Shown piece by piece: positions 3,111 through 24,897 of a stretch of 44,236 nt of DNA. The position numbers and the translations under genes are program-made. Each line of letters opens with the position of its first letter. Positions within the stretch are counted from its first letter, which is position 1. The stretch is from an uncultured Methanosarcinales archaeon (GTDB lineage Archaea > Nanobdellota > Nanobdellia > Woesearchaeales > UBA12501): assembly GCA_964397315.1 (NCBI GenBank), contig CAYNHV010000008.1, forward strand, positions 1 through 44,236, given 5' to 3'. A model generated the notes under the pieces. That model ran no database searches. It was not told the DNA's origin and was given only the letters and a program-made list of their open reading frames with translations.

Positions 3111-5991
<2,881 letters not shown>

Positions 5992-6694: not shown

Positions 6695-6929
6695 AAAATC
6701 TTAAAAATAGGGGAGAATCAGGAAATCAGAGGTAAACTGTCCTTGACTGTTTCCTGTAACTTGCTGTGTCAATCATGGATATTTCTTTTTCTACAATCCC
6801 TATTCTTTCCTCAAGGTCCTTTCCCATGAACCTGAAGCATATCAGGCCGTGACCGTCAATGCTTTTCCTCTTCTTCTCAAGCTTGAGAAGGTAGGATGCA
6901 TCATAATAAGTTTGTAATCGCTCTCTTTA

Positions 6930-8381
6930 TCAATCATCAGCTTGATATTGGAAACCGACCTCCTCATCCAGCTCCCCATAATCTGATATCTCCTCATTAT
7001 ATGTCTCACGAGCCTCTTTCATCCTCTTCAACTCAGCTGATCCAATGCCCTTATGCAGAACATATCCATCAAAAGTTACCCGGTTAGTCTCTATTCTTGG
7101 TATCTTGTATGTGTTTGAGGATGGAAAAGCGCATCCTCCCCAGGCGTGCATTGCTGCCACGAACCTGTACTCTTTCCCGTGATATGTGACAGAAGGGGCT
7201 TCTCTGCCAAAATCATTAGGCAGCGCGCCGTAAGGATACGCCACCAGGCCCACTTGGGATACATCCTCGCCAAGATATTTCTCAAGCTCTTCCATCACCT
7301 TTCCCAGCTCTTTTTCTATCTCCTGTCTGCCCGCCTGCCTCATGCTGATATGGTTGTAGGTGTGGTTCCCTACGGTAAGGCCTTCTTTAACGAGTCTGTT
7401 TATCTTCAGCCCCTCATAGCCCTTTTGGCCGAAAGGCACAGCATCATCCTCCCCTCCGTTTTTTGAGAAATCCACAAAAAAAGTGGCTTCAAAGCCGAAA
7501 TCAGGAGATCTCTCGTAAAAATCCTTCATTATGGCAAAGGCGCAGTCAGGGTCAAGAACGGGATTTCCGCCTTCATCAAGCTTAACCCTTCCACCCTCTT
7601 CAATGTAGCTGAACTGGCCTTTAGTTGAATCATCAAAAGTTATCACTGCAGGCTTCCTTCCCACAGGAACAGAGCTGAGATCCTCATTCAAGAGCTCTTC
7701 AAGAGAGATGAGGGTGAAATTTTTCTCATAAAGCCTTTGCAGCTGCTGCCTGAACTCCTCAGGCTTAACATTGTACCTGTCATAACCGGGGATGTCTTTA
7801 ATCTTGTGGTACATCAGAACAGGAACTCCTGCAGAGAGTATTTTTTGGGTCTCAGCAGGAGAGTAGGGACTGGCTTCGTCTGCTGGTTTTTCTGCGACTG
7901 CCTCTGTAGAGGAAACGCCCTTTTCCTCAAGAAAATAAGCGCTGTCTGAAGAGGGCAAGATTTCTTCCCTTTTTTCATAAGATGGATTTGGAGTCAGAAG
8001 AGAGGGCTTTACAAGATTGATAGAAAAAAATGAGAGGAGAGCGGAAAGTGACATACCAAAAACAAATGCGCCTGCCATGACCGTGTTTCTTAGTCTCTTA
8101 TGTTTTTTTTCGGCACCAGATGTCTTATAAAGCAAAGCAGACCTCACTTTTTCCTCAAGGGCTTTTGTATCTGAAGATTCAGAGATGCTCCATTCTGTTT
8201 CACATGATGTCCTGGCATAAGGGACAATAGAGCTGATTTCCTCCCTGTCAGGAAGCCCGCTCACCAGGGGTATGTATCTGAGACCGACGCCTTCCATGGG
8301 CCATGGGCCATGATGGTTCAGGAGCTTTTCAACTCCGCTGGAATTTTCTGCAGTTCCCCTTATCTTGTTTTCGTTCTTCAA
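6930..8381 (-). CDS. Membrane-anchored polysaccharide deacetylase (CE4/NodB, IcaB/PgaB-like)
   Basis: PVLMYH, TFDD, GNHTYNH and AYPYG motifs; TM segment at ~aa 100-122. Confidence 0.88.
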   Translation of the reverse strand: MKNENKIRGTAENSSGVEKLLNHHGPWPMEGVGLRYIPLVSGLPDREEISSIVPYARTSCETEWSISESSDTKALEEKVRSALLYKTSGAEKKHKRLRNTVMAGAFVFGMSLSALLSFFSINLVKPSLLTPNPSYEKREEILPSSDSAYFLEEKGVSSTEAVAEKPADEASPYSPAETQKILSAGVPVLMYHKIKDIPGYDRYNVKPEEFRQQLQRLYEKNFTLISLEELLNEDLSSVPVGRKPAVITFDDSTKGQFSYIEEGGRVKLDEGGNPVLDPDCAFAIMKDFYERSPDFGFEATFFVDFSKNGGEDDAVPFGQKGYEGLKINRLVKEGLTVGNHTYNHISMRQAGRQEIEKELGKVMEELEKYLGEDVSQVGLVAYPYGALPNDFGREAPSVTYHGKEYRFVAAMHAWGGCAFPSSNTYKIPRIETNRVTFDGYVLHKGIGSAELKRMKEARETYNEEISDYGELDEEVGFQYQADD

Positions 8382-8440
8382 GCTATCACCTGTATTATCT
8401 TAGAGCTACAGCTAACCAAAAACACAAAGCAGGATCAGGT

Positions 8441-10237
8441 TCAGTACTCTTCCATCTCCTGCCTGTTCTTTACGAGCTCTGGTGGAAAGTGAACATGAGT
8501 GTCTCTGTCCATTATTTCCGAAAAAGAGGGGTTAAGGCGGCGGTTATATTTCAGCACAATGCCTGCATGACCCGCGCTTCCTGTCACAGCCTTTGCTATG
8601 TCTTCAATCCTCTCCCCCTTTTCTGCAGGATAATAATCCCTGGAATACACTTTATCTGAAGATGATTTAGGATCTTCCACAAACCATATCCTGTGGAGCT
8701 CTTCCCTGTTTTTTGCCAGCTCATCAGGTATTACAAGATACTGGTTAACGTATATGAGGTTGGGATTGTCTATGCCATTATGCTCGGCAATGTCCGGATA
8801 ATTTTGGGACGTTCCACTGACTTCCTTGGATATGTCAGAGAGAGTGTCTCCTTTCCTCACAGCATAGACCCACACCTTTGGGTGGTTTTTATAAGGAAAT
8901 GCGCCTAAAGAAGGGTCATCACCCTCTTTAGTGGATGCCTGATTGCGGCCTCCACCGCTTATAGAACGGCTTTCTGACTTATTTCTTTCCAGCGCGCTGT
9001 TAAGGTAGCCTACTCCTTTCACACCCCCATATAAGAGCATGGAGGATAAGACAAACACCCCTCCTGTCTTTGCCAAGAGCCATGAGGTGCTCTTAAAATT
9101 GTCCTTGAATCTTTCAACTCTTGCAATTTCTGACTCAAGCCTTTCCCTGTAAGCAGCCGTCTTTGTGTTTATCTTTTCTATATGGCCTGCGTAGGATTGT
9201 GCAGAGAGAGAGGAGTTATCCTGATTTCTTCTTTTCTCGTTCTCAAGCTCCTGAAGTTCTGAGCTGACATTCCCTAAGTCCCTGAGATTTTTCCTGAATG
9301 AGACATATCTGGAAGTTCTGAATACTATGCTGGCCAGGCCGGGAGGGGAGTTTTCCATCTCCTGGAATATCTGATCCGCCTTTTTCCTGAGGCTTTCCAT
9401 GTTCTCCTTCATGCCTCTCCAGTAATTCTCAATCTCCGAATCAATACCATTCCTGACATCTGAAAGAGTATTCAAAAGAGCTTCTTTTTGTTCTGAGAGT
9501 TCCTCTCTCCGGCACTCAGAAGCCTCATTAATGTAACAATCTATCTTCTGGAGAGCCTCCTTAAGCTGTTCCAGGGTGTAGGCATCCTGCTGGCTTTGGA
9601 TATTCTCTGTATCGTTCCTGATGCTGTCCATTCTCTCCTTTCTCTTTTTCGTCCGGAAATATTCCATGCCCGCTCTCGCCCCCCTCATTACCTTATCATG
9701 TATAGGAGCATCATCATTGAGCAGGTCGTTTATTGCACCTGTGGTGGCGGACATCCTGTCCAGGAACACCAGGCCCTTTAAATCCTTTATATCCCCAGCC
9801 TCATCTATCATATTCACGATTTCGCTGTTATTCAGAAGACAGCAGTAAGCAGTATAAAGCATGCTCAGGCCCAGGTCATCTTTTCCAGTATCATCCTTCT
9901 CTTCACTTCTTGGGATGTCTCCCTTAACACACGATGTATCAATAGATGATAACTTTTCAACACAATGCTTAAGCAGGGTTTCCTCCCCCCCATTCATCCT
10001 GTCATAGAGAGTCTCTGCATCACTAACTCCAAAATCAAGGCAGTAATCAGCCACAATAAGGGAGCCTGGGTCTGAGGAAGGCGCTTCTTTCTCGTTGAGG
10101 TTCTCAATAAGGTAGGACCACAGCAGCCGGTCCTCAAGGTCTCTTCTTTCTGTATCGTTAGGAGGCTTCCCTGAAAAAAGGGATACAAACTTCTCCTCAA
10201 GGCCTTCCTTTTCCTCCCTTGTATCAAATTCCGTCAT
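8441..10237 (-). CDS. Coiled-coil, single-TM protein with C-terminal LysM domain(s)
   Basis: YAVRKGDTLSDISK...IAEHNGIDNPNLIYVNQYLVIP; second degenerate LysM (PAEKGERIEDIAK); TM WLLAKTGGVFVLSSMLLYGG. Confidence 0.85.
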   Translation of the reverse strand: MTEFDTREEKEGLEEKFVSLFSGKPPNDTERRDLEDRLLWSYLIENLNEKEAPSSDPGSLIVADYCLDFGVSDAETLYDRMNGGEETLLKHCVEKLSSIDTSCVKGDIPRSEEKDDTGKDDLGLSMLYTAYCCLLNNSEIVNMIDEAGDIKDLKGLVFLDRMSATTGAINDLLNDDAPIHDKVMRGARAGMEYFRTKKRKERMDSIRNDTENIQSQQDAYTLEQLKEALQKIDCYINEASECRREELSEQKEALLNTLSDVRNGIDSEIENYWRGMKENMESLRKKADQIFQEMENSPPGLASIVFRTSRYVSFRKNLRDLGNVSSELQELENEKRRNQDNSSLSAQSYAGHIEKINTKTAAYRERLESEIARVERFKDNFKSTSWLLAKTGGVFVLSSMLLYGGVKGVGYLNSALERNKSESRSISGGGRNQASTKEGDDPSLGAFPYKNHPKVWVYAVRKGDTLSDISKEVSGTSQNYPDIAEHNGIDNPNLIYVNQYLVIPDELAKNREELHRIWFVEDPKSSSDKVYSRDYYPAEKGERIEDIAKAVTGSAGHAGIVLKYNRRLNPSFSEIMDRDTHVHFPPELVKNRQEMEEY

Positions 10238-10239
10238 TT

Positions 10240-11355
10240 TTATCTTCTCATCCTGACAAATCTTGATCTTGCTGTTTCATCATCCAACACCCTGTATTCC
10301 TGATGATGAATGTCATAAGTATGGTAAGCGGGGTCGGCAAGGATTAATTCTCCACCGATTCTGACTCCTGCACAAGCATGGCGCACCTTCTTACCCTTAT
10401 TATCCCTGGAAACAAAAACATAATTCGCTTCTAATTTAGCCAGCCGGGCCATGGTCACATACAGGTATGCCATCTCTCCGCAGACTCCCTCTTTGGTCTT
10501 TGCAACCTCCTCGCTGTTGCGATACCCCGCCCCCCCTCTCATCTTTTTTCCGTAACTGACATGAACATTAATCCACTGAAATATCTTTTTTGCTTTCTGC
10601 TCATCTGTCATATTGCTTCTGTTCATTTCCTGAGCGACTGCCATAGCTATGTTTGAGATGTTGAAAGGAATGTTCATGTCCCTCTCCACCACCACCATGT
10701 TGTAAGCATCATCCATGCTTATACCTTCAAAGGAGTATGGTGTTGCAGGGTTTGTCCTTCTTCTGATCTCATTAAGGCTTCTTTCTATTAGTTCCTTATT
10801 TTCTGACATTTCCTCATAATTGGAGATCTCTCTTTTGAGGGAGGCTATCCTGTCCTTCAGGGAGCTGTTCAGCTGGTTTTTTTCTTCAAGCTCATCCTGC
10901 GCGCTCTCAAGCCTGTCTCTCAAAGAAGCTGTTTTTCTCTCAAGAGTGCTGTTCAGGCGGCTTTTGCTCTCCACATCTTCCCCCAGATTTTCCACGTCTG
11001 CTTTTATGGAATCCAGCTTATTGTGGTAACGCTCCTCCAGCCTGCTTACTTTAGTTTCCAGCCTGTTCTGGTATTCTGCCTGCACATGCTGCTTTACACC
11101 ATAGGAGGCCCCGACGCCCAAGCTGGTTATTAGTGCTGCGTAAAACAGCACTTTAGCCCCTCTCCTTCCTCTGGAGGGGCTGCCAGCGCTCCATGTATGA
11201 TCATCACCAGATATTTCCGGTTCATCAGCCACTACAGAATCTCCTCCTGCGGCAGATCTTGTCCTCTTTATTTCCTCAACAAGGCTGAAGCCTGAATTAG
11301 CTCTATTCGCAGACTTATTTCTCCTTATCTCCTTGATTAGGTTTGATTCTTCCAT
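10240..11355 (-). CDS. Membrane-anchored transglutaminase-like cysteine protease with coiled coil
   Basis: Cys-His-Asp triad GVCGEMA / HACAG / LADP; TM VLFYAALITSLGVGASYGV. Confidence 0.85.
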   Translation of the reverse strand: MEESNLIKEIRRNKSANRANSGFSLVEEIKRTRSAAGGDSVVADEPEISGDDHTWSAGSPSRGRRGAKVLFYAALITSLGVGASYGVKQHVQAEYQNRLETKVSRLEERYHNKLDSIKADVENLGEDVESKSRLNSTLERKTASLRDRLESAQDELEEKNQLNSSLKDRIASLKREISNYEEMSENKELIERSLNEIRRRTNPATPYSFEGISMDDAYNMVVVERDMNIPFNISNIAMAVAQEMNRSNMTDEQKAKKIFQWINVHVSYGKKMRGGAGYRNSEEVAKTKEGVCGEMAYLYVTMARLAKLEANYVFVSRDNKGKKVRHACAGVRIGGELILADPAYHTYDIHHQEYRVLDDETARSRFVRMRR

Positions 11356-11412
11356 TTTAGCCTTTGTTATTCTTCTCGACCTGCTTTTTTATATTAGGAG
11401 ACAACATTCAGT

Positions 11413-12291
11413 TTAATCCTTGTCTTCAACAGCACAGCTCAGGTTGCTTGTTTCACTTAGATACATACTCTTTATCAACTCAGGCAGATTTCCTGCATCT
11501 TCAAGCTCCATGAAAAACTTGTTGTGGTCCACAAAACCTCTCTGAATTTTGCTGCATAATCCTTTATGTGTTTGATCTCCGCAGTTTATTACGTACATGT
11601 TTTTTATTCTGCCTTTAAGCTCTTCCAGCTCTTTTTTGTAATCAACATTATAGGGACACCCCATGTCTCCTCCCTTAAATCCTGACACTCCATGAGGAAC
11701 AGAATCAATCATGAGTGTGAGAATGGTAGGCTGATCGTAAGTTCTTTTGTTTAATTCCTTAAAAAGACATTCGTACGCTTCAGCTTGATCTCTATTACTT
11801 ACCCTGTAGATTTCTATACTCTCAAGATTCTTTTTTATTCCTTCCACATCCTGGGAGGAGTTGGTTATTTGTATTACAGGGTAAAATTCCGTATTTTTGC
11901 CCTTTTCCTGCTTTAGATTAGGGGGTTTAGGTCGCTGGTTTGCCTCGTGGTCCCCCACACCCGCAATAGTGATATCCATATCTGCTTGTTTAAACAAAGC
12001 CTCGCATATGCACTCTATGTTTGATTTCACTTCTGAAATGAAAGGAAACATACTATAAGTAGTGTCAAATGCAATTATTGCAGAATATCTCTCTTTTTTG
12101 GCAGGTTCTGGCAGATCATCCTTTATCTTAGCACGTCCCTCTTTAACACTGAGCAGTATTTCATAATCCTTATCATAGTCAGATCCATGCTTTTGCTCCC
12201 TTATCTTCCTCACCAGCTCGGATTCCAGGGGGGGAATTACTCTGCCTTTTGCCTTAGACTTCTTTAGTTGCCGTATCAGGTCATTTACCAT
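11413..12291 (-). CDS. von Willebrand factor A (vWA) domain protein
   Basis: MIDAS-like FDTTYSM, AEAY, IDSVPHG; start at 12291 follows a GGAGGT RBS. Confidence 0.8.
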   Translation of the reverse strand: MVNDLIRQLKKSKAKGRVIPPLESELVRKIREQKHGSDYDKDYEILLSVKEGRAKIKDDLPEPAKKERYSAIIAFDTTYSMFPFISEVKSNIECICEALFKQADMDITIAGVGDHEANQRPKPPNLKQEKGKNTEFYPVIQITNSSQDVEGIKKNLESIEIYRVSNRDQAEAYECLFKELNKRTYDQPTILTLMIDSVPHGVSGFKGGDMGCPYNVDYKKELEELKGRIKNMYVINCGDQTHKGLCSKIQRGFVDHNKFFMELEDAGNLPELIKSMYLSETSNLSCAVEDKD

Positions 12292-12292
12292 T

Positions 12293-13195
12293 TTAATACC
12301 TCCATGAGTTATACATTTGTGTGGCTTCCTTATCACTTATTACGCTGAACCTGCGGTGTTTTATGTCAAAAGTATGGTAAGCGGGGTCTGCCAGTATCCG
12401 CCCCCTTTCAGTGTCAACAGCGGCGCAGCCGTGATGCACTTTTTTGTTCCTGTTGTCCCTTTTCACGCTGACATAGTTGGACTTAAGGCCGCAGCTTCTT
12501 GCCATTGTTATGTACAAATAGGCCATCTCTCCACAGATTCCCTCTTTTGTGCTGAGAACCTCTTTTGAGTTCTTGTATCTGTACATGCCTCTCCCTCCCT
12601 CCCCATACTGTATGTTCTGCTCAATCCAGTCAAATATTGCCTTTGCTTTTTCATGATCGCTCCTACTGCCTCTCGTGTGTTTCTTTATTAGTTTCATAAG
12701 CTCTGAATCAATGATGAAAGGATTGCTGACGCAGCCTTCTGTCACTGCCAGCTGGTATCCTCCACATATACCACCCACATCAAGCTTATCATCAGGCTCA
12801 CCATAAAAGCTCCTGTAACTTTCCTTTATCTCTCTGACCAGCTCTGGATTAGGTTCAGGAAGAGATACAGGAGACACAGTGTACAGTTTTTTTACTGTGG
12901 AGTCTTTTCTTATCTCATTGATCATTTCAGATGAGGATACTGTCTCATCCAGGCTATGATAATCGCCCCCATATTTCCCTTTCCTGTCCCTCCTAATCTC
13001 TGTTATAAGGATGCCTTCCCTGCCCCCTGCATGACACTTGTTCTCCCTTACTTTCTCCACTATGTTAGAGTTCCTTCTGCTCCCAAATCCTTTAAAAAAT
13101 CTTGAACTCCTGCTTTGAGGGCCAGATCTGTCCCTTCTACTACAGAATCCTCTTGCTTTTTCCCTTCTGATCAGATCAGTGATATCATCTGCCAT
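12293..13195 (-). CDS. Soluble transglutaminase-like cysteine protease (paralog of 10240-11355)
   Basis: GICGEMAYLYITMAR / HGCAA / LADPAYHTFDI. Confidence 0.85.
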   Translation of the reverse strand: MADDITDLIRREKARGFCSRRDRSGPQSRSSRFFKGFGSRRNSNIVEKVRENKCHAGGREGILITEIRRDRKGKYGGDYHSLDETVSSSEMINEIRKDSTVKKLYTVSPVSLPEPNPELVREIKESYRSFYGEPDDKLDVGGICGGYQLAVTEGCVSNPFIIDSELMKLIKKHTRGSRSDHEKAKAIFDWIEQNIQYGEGGRGMYRYKNSKEVLSTKEGICGEMAYLYITMARSCGLKSNYVSVKRDNRNKKVHHGCAAVDTERGRILADPAYHTFDIKHRRFSVISDKEATQMYNSWRY

Positions 13196-13207
13196 GGTTT
13201 TCAGGCC

Positions 13208-17181: not shown

Positions 17182-17191
17182 CTTAACCCCC

Positions 17192-18493
17192 TCAAAAACT
17201 CTTTATTCGGAGCTTGTTAGATATTTTACCCCTATCTACCTGATCAGACCTTAAAAGATGATCCTTCCAATAATTACCTTCGTCATGGAATGATTTCCAC
17301 TCAGGACCTCCTGAATAACCCATAGTAAATGTGTTTACCACAGAATTCATTATGTTGCATATAGTATAAGCGAACTCCTCTGATGTGCAACTAGTAGGTC
17401 TTCCTTTTTCTCCTCCCTTATTAGATTCATAAGACCCCGTGCATATAGGTTCATATCCTGAATCATTCTGGACAGAAGGATGTTTTATTTTGTTTATCAA
17501 GAGAGGGGTATCAATTCTGATATTTTGCCCCTCCTTTTTCACAGGAATCCCTATAAGAGCAGGATCTTTGCCGAATTCAGGACCAAACCCATAATATCCT
17601 TTGCCTCTTGGATCATAGAATATATAGCTCTTGTCTACCAGAGCGCATACATAAAACTTATCATCAGATACTTTAAAGCCTATTTTCTTTTCTGGATGTA
17701 TATATTCTCTTCTGTTAAGAAGGCCTACAATTTCCTCCTGTTTTGCGATGTCCTCCAGCTCTCTTGAGAAAGAACTGTTCCTGCTCATAAGATTCTTTTT
17801 TATGTTTTCTTTTATTCTGTTTTTGTACTCTCTCTCAAACGCTTCCAGATCAAAAGGCGACCCGCTCCTCATTTTATACATTCTGTTATTTATATAAAAG
17901 AGATTGTTCTTCTGGGAGGGGTTATTCTCGTCTCTCAAAGGAAATTTCATTCCATTCATGAGCAGAGAATTCTCATTTAAGGATTCCACTATGACTGGCT
18001 TGTCTGAAAGCACATCAAGAGGGTTGTTCCCCCCATCATCTTTTATTATAACATTCCCAATCCGCGCATTTCTTGGGTCGGAGCTTTCTGGCTTGTCTTT
18101 CCCTCCTGATGATCTTTTTTTCTCAGGATCATATCTGGGAACTACTTCTTCAATAACCTTTTTTGCAAAGAAGAAATTATCACCCATCCTGAGGAGGCTT
18201 TCCTGTTTTTCCAACACCCCTTTATGTTTGGAGCTTACGATGTCCTCCAGCGAGGATTTGAGGTGTGAATCAAGAGCGCGGAAATTTTTATTCAGGTAAA
18301 GCTTCTCTAAGTCAGCGATTGCCGGACCTCTTTCAATACCAAAAGCTCTGCCATGCCAGTTGTAATAATCTTTATGGCCATTTCTCTCAGGTATTACTGT
18401 GTGCATTCTGCAGTCCGCTATAACCACAGCTCTCTTGGCCACATTCAGCTTTTCCTTTAGATAGGCATACACTGTAGTTTGAGGCAGGTCCAT
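17192..18493 (-). CDS. Putative E2 (UBC-like) C-terminal domain protein
   Basis: P..INKIKHPSV-x6-EPICTG resembles the E2 HP(N)...IC active-site motif, preceded by beta-rich and followed by helical sequence; lies between the Ubl genes and E1. Confidence 0.55.
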   Translation of the reverse strand: MDLPQTTVYAYLKEKLNVAKRAVVIADCRMHTVIPERNGHKDYYNWHGRAFGIERGPAIADLEKLYLNKNFRALDSHLKSSLEDIVSSKHKGVLEKQESLLRMGDNFFFAKKVIEEVVPRYDPEKKRSSGGKDKPESSDPRNARIGNVIIKDDGGNNPLDVLSDKPVIVESLNENSLLMNGMKFPLRDENNPSQKNNLFYINNRMYKMRSGSPFDLEAFEREYKNRIKENIKKNLMSRNSSFSRELEDIAKQEEIVGLLNRREYIHPEKKIGFKVSDDKFYVCALVDKSYIFYDPRGKGYYGFGPEFGKDPALIGIPVKKEGQNIRIDTPLLINKIKHPSVQNDSGYEPICTGSYESNKGGEKGRPTSCTSEEFAYTICNIMNSVVNTFTMGYSGGPEWKSFHDEGNYWKDHLLRSDQVDRGKISNKLRIKSF

Positions 18494-18540
18494 TTTCTCT
18501 CCAAAAGCAGGAATCCATACAAAAATCACAAAAAAGAGTA

Positions 18541-18981
18541 CTAATCGCGCTGGCGGTACATATCCTTGCCTTGTATACCTCCTGGCTTTCCTAACACCAT
18601 GTCTATGCAGTCATACTCCTCTCCTGTTGGGAGGGTTCTGGAGTCAATATAAGGCTCTATCTTGTAGTCTATACCAAGATTTTCACTGCCTTCAGAATCC
18701 CTTATAGGTTTAAATTCTCCACCGTTATCCTTGTAGGCCATAAAATGACAGGGGTTCTCAGAGTGCTGTCTCAAACTGCTTTTCACATTGTCAGCAGTCT
18801 CGCCCTGTCGGGGAGTCATATCGTCCTTGTTCTTGGTGAGGTACTCTGCAACCTCCTGGAATGTCTTGTCTTTAAAATCCTCCCCTAACTCTTTGATCAC
18901 TGCATACTCATTCCTTTCATCCTCACTTCTGCTTAAATCTTCTTCTGTCAGAAGCATTCCCACAAAATTTCTCTCGCTCAT
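18541..18981 (-). CDS. Ubiquitin-like protein B (GG + 11-aa tail)
   Basis: C-terminus CIDMVLGKPGG|IQGKDMYRQRD; paralog of 19026-19457; start after GGAGGT. Confidence 0.6.
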   Translation of the reverse strand: MSERNFVGMLLTEEDLSRSEDERNEYAVIKELGEDFKDKTFQEVAEYLTKNKDDMTPRQGETADNVKSSLRQHSENPCHFMAYKDNGGEFKPIRDSEGSENLGIDYKIEPYIDSRTLPTGEEYDCIDMVLGKPGGIQGKDMYRQRD

Positions 18982-19025
18982 TTTACCAACCTCCGGTTTG
19001 TTTTTATTTCTCAAATAGATGAGTA

Positions 19026-19457
19026 TTAATCACACCCACCTATTAGGCCAATTACTATGTCTATGCAGTCGTATTCCTCTCCTGAAGGGAGGGTTCTGGT
19101 GTCTATGTAAGGCCTTATTTTATCTTCTATGTTACGCTCTTCATTTCCATCAACATCTCTTACAGCTGTAACTCCTTCCTCATCTTCTTTGTAAGCTATA
19201 AAATAACAGATCATTTTTTGAGGTAATTCTTTATTATGGCATTCTAACATTGATTTTGTTTTGTTAGCGGTCTCTCTTTGCTGGGCAGACAAATCCTCCA
19301 AATCTTCAGCTAGGTCTTCCGCAACCTCCTGGAATGTCTTGTCTTTATAATCCTCCCCTAACTCTTTGATCATAGCATATTCACTCCTTTCATCCTCGCT
19401 TCTGCTACATAAATCTTCTTCACTCAAAAGCATCCCCACAAAACTTCTCTCGCTCAT
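19026..19457 (-). CDS. Ubiquitin-like protein A (GG + 2-aa tail)
   Basis: C-terminus CIDIVIGLIGG|CD (cf. ubiquitin TLHLVLRLRGG); KTFQEV helix start; NIEDKIRPY (cf. LEDGRTLSDY). Confidence 0.62.
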   Translation of the reverse strand: MSERSFVGMLLSEEDLCSRSEDERSEYAMIKELGEDYKDKTFQEVAEDLAEDLEDLSAQQRETANKTKSMLECHNKELPQKMICYFIAYKEDEEGVTAVRDVDGNEERNIEDKIRPYIDTRTLPSGEEYDCIDIVIGLIGGCD

Positions 19458-19499
19458 TTTACCAACCTCTGGTTTGTTTTGTTTTTATAAGGTAAACTA

Positions 19500-20591
19500 T
19501 CATCTTTTAAGATACTCTATATCCCTCCTTGTTCTCTCCTCAAGCTGTTGGTTATTGATTGAATCTTCCCTTCTTGCTCTTGCCAGAGCGTTCTCAGTAT
19601 CCCCCATTGTCCTGTCATATGCGTCTGTTATAGATGACCTTAACATCTTCATGGCTTTTGAGACCTTCATAGTGGCCAGTTTGTGCAGCTCTCCGGAGAA
19701 TTGTGTCACTGATGTTACCTGCTTGTAGACATCATCCCCCACCTGCTGCAGGCCGTACATCATGAGGTAAGGCCCTATAAACCTCTCAAGCCGCCTCTGG
19801 ATCCTTCTTGTCCTGTCGCACATTCTTCGGTATGTGAAGTAATTGGCCATGAATAAATTCTTGAAATCCTTGGACATTCTTATGTCAGCAACATCGTCAG
19901 AGACAGTGTCAAGGGATTTGAGATACTGAAGATAGAGTGTGTTTATCTCACTTTCCTTACTCTCAAGCTCAGTGTCAATTTTTTTCGCCTTCTCACTGAG
20001 AGGATTGTCATTAGGAAACTGAGCTTTCAATTTTTCATATTCCGCTGTTTTTTTTGTTATGTCACTCTCTAAACTTGCCAGGGACCCCTTGCTCTCTACA
20101 GCCTCATCGTAAATCTCGCTCCTGAAGTTCGCCATGTCATGGATGTATTTCCAGCAATTGTTCAGCATAGCTTCTAAATCCTGGTTAAGGTTTTTCACTA
20201 TCACCAGCTCTCTTTGAAAAATCCTGTCCACAGTGGGCTTCTCTGTGCCAAAGAGCTTGTTACTCATGTAATCTGATAATTTCATGAATGGCCTTGTTAT
20301 GGGATACTTGCCTTTTAGAATCTCTCTGTGAAGGGCTTTTTGGCATGTCAGGAGATCTCCTGTTCTCTCTGCAAACTCGTTGTAAAGCACTACACCATAA
20401 GTGGTGGGAGATGTGGAGGTATCCATGCTTGCCACGCTCTCGTGTAAATTCCTGCCCTCAGAGGTGACATTTCCAGGATATACCTCTGGATGCATTACAC
20501 TAGAAGAAGAGCTCACTCTGCTGTTTTCAGTGTCTCTCACTTTCTTCTTCCCCTTGTCTTCCCTGACTTTCTTCAATAAATCATCGCTCAT
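19500..20591 (-). CDS. All-helical coiled-coil protein (weakly TelA/KlaA-like)
   Basis: 363-aa ORF in the operon with heptad-rich helices; family guess rests on size and layout only. Confidence 0.55.
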   Translation of the reverse strand: MSDDLLKKVREDKGKKKVRDTENSRVSSSSSVMHPEVYPGNVTSEGRNLHESVASMDTSTSPTTYGVVLYNEFAERTGDLLTCQKALHREILKGKYPITRPFMKLSDYMSNKLFGTEKPTVDRIFQRELVIVKNLNQDLEAMLNNCWKYIHDMANFRSEIYDEAVESKGSLASLESDITKKTAEYEKLKAQFPNDNPLSEKAKKIDTELESKESEINTLYLQYLKSLDTVSDDVADIRMSKDFKNLFMANYFTYRRMCDRTRRIQRRLERFIGPYLMMYGLQQVGDDVYKQVTSVTQFSGELHKLATMKVSKAMKMLRSSITDAYDRTMGDTENALARARREDSINNQQLEERTRRDIEYLKR

Positions 20592-20597
20592 TCTGAA

Positions 20598-21050
20598 TCA
20601 CCTTTTATAGCCCTCTTTGATATCATCCACAACCTCATCAAGAGCTTTGTTGCCCTCTCTCAGCTTCTTGCCAAGCCGGAAGCCAAAGCCTTTTTTTCCT
20701 CCCTGCTCATTGCCTCCCAGCTGGTTTCCATTGCCCCCCTCATAGGCTGTTATGCAGGTCACCCTCTCCTTCAGAGTGTAAAGTGCGCATTCCTCAGGAC
20801 CCCCTATCAAGAGCTGGCCGTCTCGCTCATGAACAGGAATCCTGTCGCTGCCGTCCTCAACATAGGTCTCAAGCTTTCTGTCCCTCTCCACATATTCTAT
20901 GCTTATGTTCTTTGCTCTCTCCCATGGAGGGAACCCCTCTGCCGGCTTCAGCCCCGAATATGCTGCCTTATTGCAGCTTTGAGCTCCATAAAGCGTGGCT
21001 GCTGCTGTAGCCCCCACAACAATAGCGTATTTCATTATCTTTCCAATCAT
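20598..21050 (-). CDS. Small protein with N-terminal signal/TM segment
   Basis: MIGKIMKYAIVVGATAAATLYGAQSC; first gene of the operon. Confidence 0.65.
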   Translation of the reverse strand: MIGKIMKYAIVVGATAAATLYGAQSCNKAAYSGLKPAEGFPPWERAKNISIEYVERDRKLETYVEDGSDRIPVHERDGQLLIGGPEECALYTLKERVTCITAYEGGNGNQLGGNEQGGKKGFGFRLGKKLREGNKALDEVVDDIKEGYKR

Positions 21051-21079
21051 AGCTTACACCCTGACAGGCATATAGTAAT

Positions 21080-21220
21080 GCATTTTTAATAACTGTTTTC
21101 AGAGCAAAACCGGAAGTGTTGCAGAAAAAGCGGAATGTATCCGGAAATTATGAAAATAATCTGTCAGAACAAATAAATACCTGAAATTTTTCCGGAAATA
21201 ATGGAAGAATATTAGTGGTT
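21080..21220 (-). promoter_or_regulatory. Promoter/operator region copy 1
   Basis: TATA-like TTATTAAAA on the minus strand plus CAAAACCGGAA..CAGAAAAAGCGGAAT, repeated at 21988-22128. Confidence 0.6.
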
Positions 21221-21306
21221 TTTTGGTTTGTTCTTTTTTAAGAGCGCTTCAATCTTTTCGTCTGCTACGCCACCCTGAATGCTTTAAAAAGGAGTTACTC
21301 TATTAA

Positions 21307-21963
21307 TCAGAGCTTTAAACTCAATCTATTAGATACTTTGCTTTTATCTACTTCCTCAGGTTTTAATAGGTGGTCTTTCCAGTATTCTTCATTTCCATGA
21401 AACGTATTCCATTCACACATTCCTGTGTATCCTATAGTGAGAACATTCCTCACATCATGTAATATGCGGATTACTGCTCTTGAGAAATTTTCCTCATCAG
21501 TTTTTCTTGGGCGCTCCAATTCATAATGTCCTATGTCAATTCTCTCATAATTAGAACAAGAAGGACGAGCAGGATGCTTGTATTTGTTTATTAACATAGG
21601 CACATCTATTGATATAGCATCACATTCTTTTACTACAGGAACTCCTATAAGCCCCTCTTCATGCCCAAAATCCGGTCCAAAACCATAGTACTGCTTGTTT
21701 ACAGGGTCATAAAGGATATAACTGTCATCAAGCAGAGCGCAGACATGGAATCTATTATTTGTTATTTTGAATCCCACTTTCTTATCAGGATCCAGATATT
21801 CTTCTCTCACTAATGTTCCAGGAATTTTGTCCTGTTGTCTTGGAGATTTCTCTAATCTCCTCTTAAAGCCCTTCTCTGCATAATGGGGCACATAACAAGG
21901 TATGACCTCCTCCAAAACTTTTTTTGCAAAGAAGGTATTATCTTCTGTTTTATTGTTTAGCAT
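21307..21963 (-). CDS. Truncated paralog of the E2-like protein with Cys-to-Asp at the putative active site
   Basis: Shares FFAKKV.EEV.P, KK.GFK, YYGFGP.FG and YWKDHLL with 17192-18493; HPARPSCSNYERID aligns with HPSVQNDSGYEPIC. Confidence 0.7.
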   Translation of the reverse strand: MLNNKTEDNTFFAKKVLEEVIPCYVPHYAEKGFKRRLEKSPRQQDKIPGTLVREEYLDPDKKVGFKITNNRFHVCALLDDSYILYDPVNKQYYGFGPDFGHEEGLIGVPVVKECDAISIDVPMLINKYKHPARPSCSNYERIDIGHYELERPRKTDEENFSRAVIRILHDVRNVLTIGYTGMCEWNTFHGNEEYWKDHLLKPEEVDKSKVSNRLSLKL

Positions 21964-21987
21964 TATCTCTAATTCCCCATACCAATT

Positions 21988-22128
21988 GCTTTTAATAACA
22001 CTTTCCAGTCCAAAACCGGAAACTCTTCAGAAAAAGCGGAATAATCTCAGAAACAATGAATATGCTTCACAATAGTATTAAAATTCATGAAGGATTTCCA
22101 GAGAAAACGGAAGGCTGTTAGTGGGTTG
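21988..22128 (-). promoter_or_regulatory. Promoter/operator region copy 2
   Basis: Homologous to 21080-21220. Confidence 0.55.
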
Positions 22129-22173
22129 GGAAATATTAGAGATATTAATGACGCCCAAACTTTAAGTATAAAA

Positions 22174-24201
22174 TCACTTATCATTAGAATAATGCTTCTC
22201 CAGCTGTTGGTAGACTATATCCTCTGTTATCCTGAGCTTGCCGTCTTTAACCATAGGAGATTCCCTCATTCCCTTGAGGACTGTGGTTAATATGGATTCT
22301 ATGGCTCTTGCTCCTGTGCCCCTTGCAATAGCCTCCTCTGCGATTGCATGGTAAGCAGAATCATCAAATGTTAACTCAATACCATAGCTTTTACCAAATA
22401 AGATCTGTTTTCCCTGGACATAAGAATCCTTTGCAGTGGTCATTATTTCAACAAGCTGATCCTGATCTAGCTGATTAAGAGCAACTATATCAGGAAGTCT
22501 GCCTATCAGTTCTTTCTTAAAACCATATGCTAGAAGATCTTCTGAAGAGACCCTCTGTAGGGATTCATGCTGATTCGGGCTTTCTTTATTATGATCAGCT
22601 CCAAACCCTAATTTCCTTTTAATGGATCTATTATTCACAATTTCAGCCAAACCATCAAAAGCTCCTCCACATATGTAAAGAATGTTGGATGTGTCCATGT
22701 TTCCATAAGCTGTTGAAACGCTCTCTCCCTCAAGAATTTTGAGCAGCTCATTTTGTAGGTCCTCCCCCCTTATATCCCTCTGGGTTATATCTTTTTGAGC
22801 TATTTTGTCAAACTCATCAAAGAAGACAATACCTCTCTCTGCTTTGTCCACTGCTCCTGCTTTTTCAATGAGTGAGTTAAATGCATTATCTATATTCTCT
22901 CCAACGTATCCTTGGGCTGTTTTACCAGCGAGACCATAAATAACAAAAGGAACTCCAAGAATTTCTGAAACTGTTTGTGCCACATATGTTTTTCCGGATC
23001 CTGTTGGTCCCATCATCAGTATATGTGTATTTTTTACTTTGGTTCTTTCAGATTCAGGCAGCGACAATCTCTGATAATGGTCACAGACTGCTTCTGCTAA
23101 TGAATTTATAGCTTTTTCCTGCCCTACAACATAGGGTTGAACTGCTTTGACAATGCTTGTGGGCTTTTTGTAATCGATTTCAGGCGACCCAGAAGACTTT
23201 TCCATTTTTGGTTCAGGTTTTGGTTTTGATTTTTCTTCTTTGGTTTTTTGGGGCTTTGGCTTCGATGCAGGAGCTTCTGTTTTCCTTGGTTTTTGCCTTT
23301 CTACAGGTTTTTCTCTTATTCCATCTCTCTGTTTTGTGAATTCTTCCATTGAATTGTATTCTCCTTCTTCTTTATTTGAAAAACGGAAAATATATGTTCC
23401 TGAGTTAGTCTTAAATGGGTCAAAACTTTGAAACTTCTCATTAGAATGATATGGTCTTAAATCGTGGTCTTTTACTCTTACAACCAGATTTCCCCCAGGC
23501 ATCTCTTCTTCTTCAAATCTGTATGCAAGGAATAAGGCATTAATTCCTTTCTGGATTACTGAAGCAAACTCCCCCAGGTGGTCTAAGTATTCCCGAAATG
23601 TTTCATCTATCTTATCTGTTTCCTTAAAACGAGGAGTTTTTCTTAGCATAGATGTGTATTGTGTCTCTTTTTTCTCACTTGACCACCAATGTTTTTTTGG
23701 AATATCCACAGTGTAGGGTCTTTCTTTCATTACTTTTTCACCATCATGATTTATGTCAACTACAATTAGTTTCCTGTTTTCTTTAGCATTTGCTTTTCTT
23801 TCTTCTTTGCTGTATCCTAGGTCTCTTAAAACCTCTTTTTCGGCATGCATTATTGCTGTTTCTATATTCCATGCAGCTTTTGTTTCAGGGGTGAATATAG
23901 ATGATAATGCCTCACTTGCTGTTTCCCTGTCTTTTTCTGTATAAACTGGAAATGAAACAATTCTGGCTCCAAGAGCATACTCTCTCCCGTCAGAAACAGC
24001 TGCTGGTGTCACAGAATGGGTAAGCCTCAATTGCGGATTTTTTATATCTGAGAAATTAAATTTCCCACTTCTAAATTCGTTAAGCCGCTTAACTTTATAT
24101 ATCTCAGCAATTTCAAGAGGGATATCTCTAAATTCTGGCTCTCTGCGTATAATCTCATTGGTAAATTCAAAGAGATCCTGTATATCAATGTGTATCACCA
24201 T
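22174..24201 (-). CDS. clpX: ClpX-like AAA+ unfoldase with novel ~290-aa N-terminal region and Lys/Pro-rich linker
   Basis: YVVGQEKA, GPTGSGKT, GYVGE, FFDEFDKI, ICGGAFDGL, LGF loop, ELIGRLP, TGARA; no C4 zinc-binding domain. Confidence 0.88.
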   Translation of the reverse strand: MVIHIDIQDLFEFTNEIIRREPEFRDIPLEIAEIYKVKRLNEFRSGKFNFSDIKNPQLRLTHSVTPAAVSDGREYALGARIVSFPVYTEKDRETASEALSSIFTPETKAAWNIETAIMHAEKEVLRDLGYSKEERKANAKENRKLIVVDINHDGEKVMKERPYTVDIPKKHWWSSEKKETQYTSMLRKTPRFKETDKIDETFREYLDHLGEFASVIQKGINALFLAYRFEEEEMPGGNLVVRVKDHDLRPYHSNEKFQSFDPFKTNSGTYIFRFSNKEEGEYNSMEEFTKQRDGIREKPVERQKPRKTEAPASKPKPQKTKEEKSKPKPEPKMEKSSGSPEIDYKKPTSIVKAVQPYVVGQEKAINSLAEAVCDHYQRLSLPESERTKVKNTHILMMGPTGSGKTYVAQTVSEILGVPFVIYGLAGKTAQGYVGENIDNAFNSLIEKAGAVDKAERGIVFFDEFDKIAQKDITQRDIRGEDLQNELLKILEGESVSTAYGNMDTSNILYICGGAFDGLAEIVNNRSIKRKLGFGADHNKESPNQHESLQRVSSEDLLAYGFKKELIGRLPDIVALNQLDQDQLVEIMTTAKDSYVQGKQILFGKSYGIELTFDDSAYHAIAEEAIARGTGARAIESILTTVLKGMRESPMVKDGKLRITEDIVYQQLEKHYSNDK

Positions 24202-24356
24202 CAGCCTTACCTCTTGATCAATAATCCTAAGACCCCCCCTCTACACCGCTTTTATGCAGAAAATCAAAACACCTATTTAAATCTTTCGGTTATTTATGAC
24301 TAAACAGTGGTTAATAATTTAATAAACTAGAACCCTCTGTATATTAAACCACCCCA

Positions 24357-24836: not shown

Positions 24837-24897
24837 ACCCCCCTGGAATGTTTCAAAGTTATCCTGAAATATAAATCTTATTTTTGCTTATCTCCTG

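Follow-up and report, generated by a model that had tools for sequence, protein, structure and literature searches.

The window analysed here, a 44,236-nt stretch of archaeal DNA from genome G000 (93% complete), carries a gene cluster that is real: its ORF map places 14 co-oriented genes, all on the minus strand, between positions 6930 and 24201, flanked by an rRNA operon and housekeeping genes. Twelve of the 14 are tightly packed within 6930–21050, with intergenic gaps of −44 to +59 nt from the SP150 gene (20598..21050) to the CE4 gene (6930..8381); wider gaps occur at the pseudo-E2 gene (256 nt), at the ClpX-like gene (210 nt) and at a fifteenth co-oriented gene, an Lrp/AsnC regulator (24357–24836) separated by 155 nt from the start of the ClpX-like gene on its upstream side. 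In three runs of a single study, independent Logan contigs span the stretch with no differences and run across the JAB ORF. The initial annotation had the gene order, the shared orientation and the close packing right, but counted 13 genes (under 14 names) and a packed set of 11, where the map holds 14 and 12. In the direction of transcription, the features are:

24357..24836, minus strand: Lrp/AsnC-family regulator (Pfam AsnC_trans_reg E 4.4e-6, HTH_24 E 9.3e-6)
22174..24201, minus strand: ClpX-like AAA+ unfoldase, C-terminal ClpX module at residues about 335–669 (NCBIfam ClpX, Pfam)
21307..21963, minus strand: pseudo-E2 (UEV-like), a short paralogue without insertion domains (identity to the E2-like protein)
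20598..21050, minus strand: SP150, 150 aa, with a hydrophobic, signal- or anchor-like N-terminus and then a Cys (sequence)
19500..20591, minus strand: 363-aa protein, probably largely helical (sequence reading)
19026..19457, minus strand: candidate modifier 1, 143 aa, with two residues after its GG (sequence)
18541..18981, minus strand: candidate modifier 2, 146 aa when started at the second Met, with 11 residues after its GG (sequence)
17192..18493, minus strand: E2-like conjugating enzyme, 433 aa when started at Met13 of the ORF (predicted fold and HP...C motif)
15748..17181, minus strand: E1 with a degenerate (inactive) N-terminal and an active C-terminal ThiF adenylation domain (Pfam ThiF)
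13208..15751, minus strand: JAB/JAMM peptidase with a long linker, one TM helix and a C-terminal LysM-like domain (motif, TM prediction, profiles)
12293..13195, minus strand: cytoplasmic transglutaminase-like (papain-fold) protein (Transglut_core E 1.5e-13; no TM segment)
11413..12336, minus strand: vWA-like protein, tentative (Atlas score 0.92 to VWA clusters)
10240..11355, minus strand: single-pass TM protein that has a long helical stretch and, at its C-terminus, a transglutaminase-like domain (Transglut_core E 1.7e-13)
8441..10237, minus strand: membrane protein with LysM at residues 458–504 (PF01476 E 1.2e-9)
6930..8381, minus strand: single-pass membrane CE4 polysaccharide deacetylase (Polysacc_deac_1 PF01522 E 2.4e-12)

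Profile matches bear out the labels CE4, LysM, transglutaminase (both copies) and two-domain ThiF given to these products earlier.

The predicted conjugation enzymes and candidate modifiers

The E1 matches Pfam ThiF in two stretches (E 8.4e-51), with values of 1.9e-9 for the N-terminal and 3.6e-40 for the C-terminal domain when these are matched separately. Invariant across 24 sequences are ATP/Mg residues and a Cys, at G265, G267, D289, D291, N297, R300, Q301, K312, D357 and C419, the last of which sits in a short crossover loop, about 20–25 residues from the CxxC position. A search of the PDB with the E1 profile returns UBA3, SAE2 and Uba1 as the best matches (~3e-35), and MccB, PaaA, Cap2 and BubCD also appear; in PADLOC only the adenylation part of the Cap2 models is matched. 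The strong matches of this enzyme to the ThiF and MoeB models would fit a sulfur-carrier system of the SAMP, MoaD or ThiS type, dedicated to cofactor or tRNA thiolation with no protein tagging; G000 has no match to PF02597 (ThiS family), so that a substitute carrier might be needed, and a cysteine desulfurase and a radical SAM gene lie near the variant loci G324 and G297. We consider this very improbable, as the E1 scores far below all equivalog cut-offs (UbaA, for example, at 93 bits against 450), a second ThiF-type E1 is encoded elsewhere in G000, the candidate modifiers bear tails that must be cut, and sulfur transfer needs neither a JAB peptidase nor an E2-like enzyme with a conserved Cys.

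The JAB protein retains an intact JAMM motif (HxHx7SxxD, residue 108); Pfam Prok-JAB reaches E 0.003 and 17.8 bits against a cut-off of 25 in the window's protein and passes the cut-off in its orthologues. Residues 705–723 form a TM helix, and the C-terminal 130 aa give a borderline LysM match (20.7 bits, Pfam cut-off 20.9), with phrog_380 matching residues 759–845 (E 3e-4) through the same profile region as the true LysM. The earlier description of this protein as JAB-TM-LysM is sound for the motif and the helix and borderline for the LysM.

The AF2 model of the E2-like protein (pLDDT 86.6, pTM 0.76) has a UBC-like core that is split by an insertion of ~140 residues and preceded by an extra N-terminal domain. 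VIA aligns this model to E2 enzymes with Z 6.2–7.8 over 127–147 residues, spanning about 90% of the E2 core (Z 6.3–7.8), every Z being below 8, a range that according to the tool can stem from a common arrangement. In a wider VIA search of the PDB, E2 enzymes occupied 18 of the 19 best rows (Z 6.2–7.2, 130–147 residues aligned), the other, at rank 10, being 8qat_D, a chain of the Fts-Hook3-FHIP1B complex; in a second, all 50 matches listed were entries with an E2 or an E2 variant (Z 6.3–7.8). BubB (9eav_D) was also among the VIA fold matches, at Z 5.7. Foldseek returned no match at E<=1e-3, and no sequence match was found in Pfam, NCBIfam, PADLOC or the PDB. Within the family, Y336, H338, P339, C351 and G353 (P0004 numbering) are near-invariant in 43 representatives, and HP...C is kept in 28 of the 30 members at loci. 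The UBC fold on which the initial annotation had staked its reading of 17192–18493 is thus found in the predicted structure, together with a conserved HP...C motif. The label pseudo-E2 likewise fits its product, a paralogue 48% identical to residues 254–443 of the E2-like protein, in which Asp replaces the catalytic Cys; the same column holds Asp in the orthologue from G007, the genome of the closest relative (87% complete), and Cys in the other 28 of the 30 members.

The two candidate modifiers are paralogues with 60% identity (the database form of modifier 2, P0002, has 146 aa). In an alignment of their family (A4), 23 of 26 members have a Gly at or near the GG column and within the last 22 residues; GG itself is present in 12, two members terminate exactly at the Gly, and the C-terminal Gly is absent in three, both G046 copies among them. 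A beta-grasp fold, as had been claimed for these proteins, receives no support: the AF2 model, built from 3 sequences, reaches pLDDT 44; the family profile finds nothing in the PDB; a comparison by hhalign with 27 ThiS/SAMP-like proteins from the order gives a probability of 0.4%; no Atlas score exceeds 0.85; and no Pfam, NCBIfam or PADLOC model is matched. In the model about 80 N-terminal residues are predicted, with low confidence, to be helical, and the last predicted strand is followed by about 4 residues and then GG. The lack of any beta-grasp signal and the helical N-terminal region would suit a small protein that is itself cargo or target, like the CBASS cyclase attached C-terminally by Cap2 or a peptide in MccB-type maturation, such that the E1 and the E2-like enzyme would attach or prime a helical effector by activating its C-terminus; MccB, PaaA and Cap2, which the E1 profile matches, act on substrates other than Ubls. 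This is an improbable reading in our judgement, given that Ubl precursors likewise have this size, this tandem duplication and a conserved Gly ahead of a disposable tail, that the gene lies directly upstream of the E2-like gene as it does for such precursors, and that the arrangement of final strand, short spacer and GG resembles the C-terminus of ubiquitin or SAMP.

Distribution of the core and of its neighbours

Of 401 genomes sampled from the phylum (Woesearchaeota according to the source names), 53 carry the E2-like family; a single-sequence query found it in 6 of 61 relatives. None of four same-genus genomes has it, and some genomes hold multiple copies (5 matches in G020, 4 in G028). Around the E2-like gene at 25 other loci, which were picked by score and length of contig and so are not a random sample, with related genomes that are not independent, the E1 is adjacent in 23, a small protein of a single homologous tag family in 20, the JAB in 18, and all three in 17. 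As the four core genes travel together in many Woesearchaeota genomes, the proviso attached to the original proposal, that the linkage might not be conserved elsewhere, falls away.

The ClpX-like protein matches NCBIfam ClpX with E 6.6e-87, which upholds its label, though at 292 bits it stays under the cut-off of 359. Like ClpX, it aligns end to end with ClpX models over its C-terminal 340 residues, where Pfam AAA_2 and ClpB_D2-small also match, and its translation contains a GYVG pore loop and a loop that reads LGF where ClpX has IGF. Unlike ClpX, it carries in place of the zinc-binding N-domain an N-terminal part of 330 residues with no Pfam or PHROG match, and its gene is linked to the tagging operon in four genomes: in the window; in G020, within an operon with tag and E2-like genes (gaps of 5 and 7 nt); in G345, two genes after the E1; and in G040, within 3 kb of the system. 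ClpX-like genes are otherwise rare (8 of 61 relatives). No ClpP was found in G000 or G020; 20S proteasome subunits are present in G000.

Other neighbours are less widely shared. An Lrp-like gene lies within four genes of the E2-like gene in 6 of the 25 loci. SP150 and the 363-aa protein have orthologues at the same positions in G007 (65% and 66% identity) and match no family in the Pfam, NCBIfam, PADLOC and PHROG searches (no curated one in the case of the 363-aa protein); the labels 'signal peptide' and 'coiled-coil' applied to them come from sequence reading only. Homologues of the cytoplasmic transglutaminase adjoin JAB or E2-like genes at two of the 25 loci, in G005 (L016) and G088 (L060). 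The vWA assignment made earlier gains from the Atlas language-model score, with the 10 best family-bearing matches all in one clan, and from a DxTxS-like motif read in the sequence, but there is no Pfam match even at E<=10; the protein was not found in G007, G001 or G005. The TM-transglutaminase has its TM helix at residues 69–87 and Transglut_core at 239–341, and is predicted from the basic residues before the helix to face outside. The TM-LysM protein also matches NCBIfam LysM (E 2.7e-11) and the endolysin LysM region of phrog_380 (E 1.2e-10), and beyond a hydrophobic segment at about 386–404 it has another LysM-like stretch. The CE4 protein has its TM segment at residues 101–119.

A Pfam search of 235 neighbour proteins found LysM and CE4 at none of the 25 other loci, and G007 has no match to the vWA-like protein, the TM-LysM protein or the C-terminal parts of the JAB protein. 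The coupling to glycans that had been put forward as a property of the system is not upheld as such, and the absence of LysM and CE4 at the other loci makes it a feature of G000 alone. The same observations, together with a TM segment in only one other JAB protein (L049) and the borderline LysM of the window's own, favour a reading in which two unrelated modules meet here: a cytoplasmic tagging operon (tag, E2-like, E1 and JAB, with or without ClpX) and an envelope gene set (vWA-like, TM-transglutaminase, TM-LysM and TM-CE4) that lies downstream by chance, the LysM-like tail of the JAB being a lineage-specific anchor with no signalling role. We regard this as a real possibility, with the odds somewhat against it: twelve genes on one strand are packed without a break between the two sets, the JAB is fused to a TM helix and a LysM-like part in an ORF bridged by independent contigs, and the transglutaminase that begins the 'second' set is the one that recurs in G005 and G088. 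Glycan coupling in G000 rests on this tight packing and on the JAB-TM-LysM-like fusion, mainly the fusion.

Relation to known conjugation systems

The closest known system is bacterial BilABCD. As described in PMC11601596, Bil Types I and II combine, like the cluster, a tag, an E2, a JAB/JAMM and an E1 with fused inactive and active domains, and the cluster shares with them the lack of an E3. The conserved Gly of the candidate tag and its short non-conserved tail, to be removed by JAB, correspond to those of Bil Ubls, in which up to nine residues follow the Gly and are cleaved by JAB (PMC10557695); variable N-terminal extensions are a further likeness (PMC11601596, PMC10557695, PMC11601603). 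For the tag the likeness is one of sequence features, a beta-grasp fold having found no support. Unlike Bil, the cluster has an archaeal (Woesearchaeota) host, an E1 with ~20-25 residues where the Bil E1 has a helical CYS domain of ~80, an E2 with a split core and an extra domain in front, an E2 and a tag that match no Pfam, NCBIfam, PADLOC or PDB sequence model, and as partners a ClpX-like unfoldase, a pseudo-E2, transglutaminase-like proteins and an Lrp regulator.

The shared parts, with an IAD-AAD E1 and no E3 (BilABCD as described in PMC11601596 and PMC10557695), also allow the cluster to be read as antiviral defence, in which a virion protein would be tagged in a Bil-like manner and the accessory genes would be defence add-ons, with no sensing of host cells or glycans. 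The patchy spread and multiple copies described above suit such a role, as do the toxin-antitoxin-type genes (ParE, PIN, MazE/AbrB-like) near several loci. Nevertheless, we think it rather unlikely: PADLOC models match neither the E2-like protein nor the tag, and the E1 only in the adenylation part of Cap2; the query used brought up no viral relative; and the flanks are an rRNA operon and housekeeping genes.

With the Caldiarchaeum and Asgard operons the cluster has in common an archaeal E1, an E2-fold enzyme, a precursor-processing JAMM and a GG tag (PMC5654768, PMC6043591). Those operons comprise Ub, E1, E2, a RING E3 and Rpn11; the cluster has no E3, its E2 and tag are unrelated to theirs at the sequence level, and none of its products matches the ubiquitin, UQ_con or RING families. 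As in SAMP/UbaA, a ThiF-type E1 would activate a small protein ending in GG, and SAMP can be removed by a JAMM protease; SAMP systems are not known to have an E2. The ThiS/SAMP-like proteins of the order differ from the tag in being about 64 aa long and ending exactly at GG with no tail, they show no similarity to the tag family in the profile comparison above, and the E1 is a fused two-domain form, unlike UbaA. Bub (6E/DUF6527) and CBASS Cap2/Cap3 are alike in employing E1-, E2- and JAB-related conjugation enzymes in prokaryotes, and BubB was among the fold matches of the E2-like protein, BubCD and Cap2 among those of the E1 profile. Bub forms serine oxyesters with an E1 that has no catalytic Cys, as PMC11601596 describes it; in the cluster's family the E1s compared all have the Cys and the E2-like enzyme has a conserved one too, and among the neighbours at the 25 loci there are no E1-E2 or E1-JAB fusions, no DUF6527 and no CD-NTase.

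A model for a probable tagging cascade

A fused E1 with an invariant Cys, a UBC-like fold, an intact JAMM and small proteins with a conserved Gly suggest, as the initial annotation proposed, that the core is a ubiquitin-type tag-E1-E2-JAB conjugation cascade of a so far unannotated family, found here in Woesearchaeota (DPANN), a reading to which we assign a probability of roughly 0.6. The enzymes have diverged so far that two of the four core parts escape standard annotation. In our model, which is built from sequence and predicted structure, the two small paralogues would be made as precursors with GG and a 2- or 11-residue tail, which the JAMM peptidase would trim. The exposed Gly would be adenylated by the active C-terminal domain of the E1, taken onto Cys419 and passed to Cys351 of the E2-like enzyme; since no E3 is encoded, targets would probably be chosen directly, by the two extra beta/helix modules of that enzyme. 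The JAB may serve as the tag remover as well. The Cys-less, UEV-like pseudo-E2 perhaps helps, as a cofactor, to build chains or bind targets, and the transglutaminase-fold protein of the cytoplasm may act as a second isopeptidase or as a transamidase.

Less certain than the core cascade are the hand-over to the unfoldase, the gating at the membrane and the biological role. The ClpX-like unfoldase probably acts on tagged proteins. The LysM, CE4 and transglutaminase-like domains of the single-pass membrane proteins are predicted to lie outside the cell, and because one TM helix joins the JAB to a LysM-like domain on the outer side, a GlcNAc-type glycan may in this organism place maturation and removal of the tag at the membrane, or gate them. 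A role in conflict or the stress response, rather than in housekeeping, is suggested by the patchy spread of the system as an accessory and by its resemblance to Bil.

Setting and conservation of the gene cluster

The cluster lies on contig C8 of a 1.47-Mb archaeal genome (G000) that is 93% complete, in a chromosomal setting that further along encodes elongation factors, FtsY, prefoldin and eIF-6. Homologues of its proteins are recorded at source as hypothetical proteins of Candidatus Woesearchaeota, and the initial annotation was therefore right to speak of a DPANN-like archaeon. Its gene order also stands: 14 minus-strand ORFs occupy 6930-24201. Between 21050 and 6930 twelve genes follow one another at spacings of -44 to +59 nt, with larger gaps of 256, 210 and 155 nt ahead of the pseudo-E2, ClpX-like and Lrp genes, respectively. 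The features flanking the cluster are as follows.

868-6005, archaeal rRNA operon
6155-6694, plus strand, 23S rRNA-intervening-sequence protein (PF05635, E 4.6e-31), between the rRNA operon, just past the LSU gene, and the CE4 deacetylase gene
24357-24836, minus strand, Lrp/AsnC regulator, the fifteenth co-oriented gene
25009-26646, plus strand, 545-aa protein without a family match
35067-37391, plus strand, two tandem HIT-domain proteins followed by a Fic/DOC-domain protein

The rRNA operon has peculiarities of its own. The SSU match extends over 1648 nt against a model of 1478 positions, pointing to insertions in the SSU rRNA, and the spacer holds a tRNA-like Rfam match (2713-2770; 29.1 bits, at the cut-off) where ARAGORN calls no tRNA. 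A homologue of the intervening-sequence protein is also found near the tagging system in another genome (G248, locus L054).

Logan contigs from three DNA runs of one study cover 6000-25000 with zero differences. The sole junction within the JAB ORF is bridged by one contig from a second sample, so this long JAB-TM-LysM-like reading frame is not an assembly chimera. Profile searches uphold the labels first given to the CE4 and LysM domains, the two transglutaminase-like domains, the E1 with its two ThiF stretches and the ClpX-like AAA+ protein, while the E2-like protein, the pseudo-E2, the two small GG proteins (the candidate modifiers, or tags) and the 363-aa and 150-aa proteins have no match in Pfam, NCBIfam, PADLOC or PHROGs.

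Searched as a single sequence, the E2-like protein has matches in 6 of 61 relatives' genomes, counting G000, and in none of the four genomes of the same genus. The family profile extends this to 53 of 401 phylum genomes, each at least 90% complete and again counting G000, with all matches falling within the same order or class. We inspected 25 other loci, comprising the five non-own matches of the single-sequence search and 20 from the profile search, the latter picked for high score and long contigs and including two secondary matches. Within four genes of the E2-like gene we find an E1 in 23 of these loci, a tag family member in 20, a JAB protein in 18 and all three in 17; the linkage is thus conserved elsewhere, as the initial annotation had required of a genuine system. 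A protein without an assignment takes the expected place of JAB in four further loci, and three loci carry larger, divergent small proteins of the GG type.

The closest relative, G007, has an E2-like protein 73% and an E1 81% identical to those of the window. Its gene order is that of the window from JAB to the pseudo-E2, followed by the Lrp gene and the 545-aa flank protein (68% identity); the ClpX-like gene is missing from this locus and the contig ends within the JAB region. FtsY of G000 is 71% identical both to that of G001 and to that of G007, and the 545-aa protein has no match in the four same-genus genomes, so that vertical descent of the cluster between G000 and G007 and its transfer are not separable. 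Searches of metagenome contigs with the E2-like protein as query found no relatives; a narrower alignment found one 3-kb metagenome contig and, in genome contigs, only that of G007. Viral contigs, searched with this narrower alignment alone, gave no relative.

Two loci (L061, G324:C4; L062, G297:C10) hold a variant operon. Its genes encode a small protein (225-234 aa) whose tail contains GG or G, an E2-like protein, a 588-593-aa protein, an E1 and an 822-840-aa protein; on its flanks are genes for a radical SAM protein and for a cysteine desulfurase-like class-V aminotransferase. This arrangement may represent a distinct subtype.

The E2-like, E1 and tag proteins

The E2-like family has 43 clusters at E<=1e-3 among 1.84 billion representatives, all of which were scanned, and their alignment shows Tyr336, His338, Pro339, Cys351 and Gly353 to be near-invariant. 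The AF2 model built from it has a pLDDT of 86.6 and a pTM of 0.76. At the sequence level the family's profile has no match in the PDB, and Pfam gives nothing consistent on the 43 representatives. Foldseek against the PDB likewise returns nothing at E<=1e-3 for the model, although E2 and UEV chains abound among its weak rows. Compared by VIA-align with 48,161 representative chains, the model has E2 enzymes in 18 of the 19 top rows (Z 6.2-7.2), the odd one being a chain of the Fts-Hook3-FHIP1B complex; the alignments take in 130-147 residues of E2 domains of ~150-170 residues and involve model residues ~100-414. Lower matches include BubB (Z 5.7) and the UEV domain of Tsg101 (Z 5.3). When VIA was applied to Foldseek's top 1000 chains, all 50 rows came from entries with an E2 or E2 variant (Z 6.3-7.8, 127-144 residues). 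BilB, the E2 of the bacterial Bil operons, is not among the fold matches listed for the model, an absence that excludes nothing. The tool warns that Z below 8, as in all of these matches, may reflect a common arrangement; we nevertheless accept a predicted UBC-like fold for the protein (17192-18493), as first proposed, given that the matches are uniform, take in ~90% of the E2 core and fit both the gene context and the HP...C motif.

In the AF2 model an insertion parts the first E2 helix (105-120) from the beta-meander (263-327). This insertion (176-260) and the N-terminal domain (23-101) share an architecture of four short strands and a long helix, and the two modules may be target- or tag-binding units. 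The choice of target would then be made directly by the E2-like enzyme. In the 218-aa paralogue the first helix runs straight into the meander and an Asp stands at the position of the Cys. The G007 orthologue likewise has Asp, and the Cys is kept in the other 28 of the 30 family members in the loci, which bears out the name pseudo-E2; its role would be UEV-like.

The E1 ORF has two ThiF matches, with E-values of 1.9e-9 in the N-terminal half and 3.6e-40 in the C-terminal half. Conserved in the C-terminal half across an alignment of 24 sequences are the Gly-rich loop, Asp289, Asp291, Asn297, Arg300, Gln301, Lys312, Asp357 and an invariant Cys419, which lies ~20-25 residues past the CxxC position and ~62 past Asp357. 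The N-terminal half keeps the signature of the fold, including the Gly-rich loop, but not the R/Q, K and D residues invariant in the C-terminal domain. Such a fused inactive/active arrangement is described as common to eukaryotic E1s and BilD (PMC10557695). The best PDB profile matches are UBA3, SAE2 and Uba1 (~3e-35), followed by ThiF (6e-32), MoeB (2e-30), Cap2 (~1e-20) and BubCD (~2e-18). Zinc motifs of the form CxxC...CxC are present in most relatives and absent from the window E1 and its G007 orthologue. A second ThiF-type E1 is encoded elsewhere in the genome (locus L002, G000:C2:107782-108537; E 6.1e-39, 506-aa frame).

The two small GG proteins are 60% identical to each other. A word-indexed search yielded very few relatives, three at first and 12 with a profile; an HMM built up iteratively on the retrieved loci collected 26 small proteins (<300 aa), nearly always encoded directly upstream of the E2-like gene. 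Their C-termini consist of a last hydrophobic strand, a few residues, a Gly that is often GG, and then 0 to ~20 unconserved residues. Of the 26, 23 have a Gly among their 22 final residues, 12 have GG, and in two the Gly is the very last residue. Bil Ubls are described as having the same precursor pattern, with a conserved C-terminal Gly and a short non-conserved tail (PMC10557695).

Bil tags have one or more beta-grasp domains, but for the beta-grasp fold first ascribed to the small GG proteins no support came from the methods applied. AF2 modelling of tag 1 with an alignment of only three sequences was unusable (pLDDT 44), the family profile has no match among PDB sequences, no Atlas match to the tag exceeded 0.85, and hhalign against 27 ThiS-family proteins of the same order returned a probability of 0.4%. 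A complex prediction for the E1 with tag residues 1-141 scored 0.00, which, in a run without controls, is evidence neither way. The name Ubl is thus used for these proteins in a functional sense and not as a structural finding. The canonical ThiS/SAMP-like proteins of the order (L070-L099) are, unlike the tags, mostly 64 aa long with an exact GG end and no tail; among 81 genomes from the order, G000 being one of them and having no match itself, 39 encode a member of the ThiS family (PF02597).

The JAB protein, the membrane module and the ClpX-like unfoldase

The window JAB protein has an intact JAMM motif (HxHx7SxxD) at residue 108. Its label stands on this motif and on orthologues that exceed the Pfam cut-off for Prok-JAB (e.g. 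35.7 and 37.7 bits against 25), whereas the window copy itself, at 17.8 bits, falls below it. Hydropathy scans place the following segments in the products of the cluster (residue numbers; all genes on the minus strand).

705-723, JAB protein, single TM helix
69-87, TM-transglutaminase, single TM helix
101-119, CE4 deacetylase, single TM helix
~386-404, LysM protein, hydrophobic stretch

Because basic residues precede each of these helices, the N-termini would lie inside and the LysM, transglutaminase and CE4 domains are predicted to face outside. The C-terminal 130 residues of the JAB protein score 20.7 bits against LysM (cut-off 20.9). They have a further match (E 3e-4) to the LysM portion of an endolysin PHROG, over the profile region that the true LysM protein matches too. 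Among other JAB proteins only that of locus L049 has a TM segment, and the 87%-complete genome G007 gave no match to the vWA-like, TM-LysM and JAB C-terminal parts. The vWA-like protein (11413-12336) has no Pfam match at E<=10; it has an Atlas feature score of 0.92 to VWA clusters and a DxTxS-like motif read from the translation. A membrane-anchored JAB whose LysM-like domain is predicted to lie outside has been seen in this one genome so far. It offers the testable idea that a host-dependent archaeon couples surface contact to intracellular protein modification, and an outside glycan may gate the tagging.

The neighbours of the system were surveyed with Pfam in a set of 235 proteins of at least 90 aa within six genes, leaving out the E1 and E2-like proteins. 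Neither LysM nor CE4 occurs in this set, and thus in none of the 25 other loci. Transglutaminase-like proteins adjoin the tagging system in two loci (G005, G088), and an Lrp/AsnC regulator lies at most four genes away in six. A Ser/Thr kinase follows the E1 in G037 (L014, G037:C11; Pkinase E 6e-31) and G224 (L047, G224:C2; 5e-27), where the operons past the E1 also hold a 273-295-aa protein.

The association with a ClpX-like gene recurs. This gene lies two genes past the E1 in G345 and 3 kb from a tag-JAB-E1-E2-like operon in G040, and in G020 (L108, G020:C68:349-3627) the gene for a 384-aa ClpX-like protein directly precedes those for a 153-aa tag family member and a 549-aa E2-like protein in a same-strand operon, the two intervals being 5 and 7 nt. 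Otherwise relatives seldom encode a ClpX-like protein (8 of 61). The window protein departs from a canonical ClpX on three counts: it scores 292 and 272 bits against equivalog models with cut-offs of 359 and 371, its N-terminal 330 aa have no family match at the place of the ClpX zinc-binding domain, and no ClpP partner was found, PF00574 having no match in the 93%-complete G000. ClpP was likewise not found in G020 (97% complete); G057 has a canonical ClpX-ClpP pair and no tagging system. G000 encodes alpha and beta subunits of the 20S proteasome. The recurrent link suggests a testable tag-to-unfoldase pathway in organisms without ClpP, by which tagged proteins would be handed over to the ClpX-like unfoldase.

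Relation to known systems and meaning for DPANN archaea

What the analysis establishes is the set of parts, a predicted E2 fold, conservation of the catalytic residues and of the linkage, and tag termini that resemble precursors; from these we infer the order of the reactions in the cascade. The closest comparison is with Bil, which likewise has an E1 of fused inactive and active adenylation domains, a UBC-fold E2 with a catalytic Cys (here a predicted fold, with the Cys in 28 of 30) and a JAB/JAMM peptidase, its motif intact here. Bil is described as protecting against virus infection by tagging a virion protein; for the present system the search of viral contigs, made with one query, gave no relative. 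BilD differs in having a mobile alpha-helical CYS domain of ~80 residues in the E1 crossover loop; here, judged from the 24-sequence alignment only, Cys419 sits in a short loop without an insertion of that size, and such a domain is therefore absent. The E2-like and tag proteins also lack PADLOC, Pfam and NCBIfam matches, with the proviso that PADLOC-DB 2.0.0 (2023) may hold no Bil models. By analogy, the cascade would work like Bil and is best filed as an archaeal variant of that kind. Without a CYS domain, and with an E2 and a tag that show no recognisable sequence homology to those of Bil, it is not placed in the Bil family itself.

Other known systems are more distant. Unlike the Caldiarchaeum/Asgard ubiquitin operons, this one has no ubiquitin, UQ_con or RING by Pfam among the window products, the 43 E2-like representatives and the 235 neighbours. 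Unlike SAMP/UbaA, which combines a single-domain UbaA E1 with a tag from the ThiS/MoaD family and has no E2, it has an E2-like protein and a tag that is not ThiS-like, and the E1 scores 93 bits against a UbaA cut-off of 450. Bub uses oxyester chemistry, with an E1 that has no catalytic Cys, and is further marked by a DUF6527 serine protease and by fused Ubl-E2 or JAB-E1 proteins. The present system would also be distinct from Bub, to judge by residues and gene content: the Cys is invariant in the E1 and conserved in the E2-like protein, DUF6527 is absent among the 235 neighbours and the genes are separate. No tagging system of the E1/E2/JAB type in DPANN was found in the literature searched, which missed most subscription journals and the supplementary operon tables of the Bil and Bub studies.

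The most far-reaching reading, which we consider improbable, is that Woesearchaeota carry an unrecognised ubiquitin-type tagging system in which the modifier is not a recognisable beta-grasp protein, a ClpP-less ClpX-like unfoldase takes the tagged proteins, and, in this episymbiont-like organism, a transmembrane JAB with an outside LysM-like domain senses the GlcNAc-containing wall of a partner cell and thereby switches intracellular tagging on or off. If true, the ClpP-less route would add to ubiquitin-proteasome and Pup-Mpa a third independent way to 'tag and unfold'.

Because current family libraries contain no match for the E2-like and tag proteins, which are two of the four core families, annotation misses such systems; the alignments made here are handles for finding more of them. 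The papers we found on ubiquitin-like systems of archaea and bacteria do not include DPANN. Tagging by E1, E2 and JAB, with a fused inactive/active E1 of the eukaryotic style, would extend to the DPANN archaea, which bears on the origin of the ubiquitin machinery.
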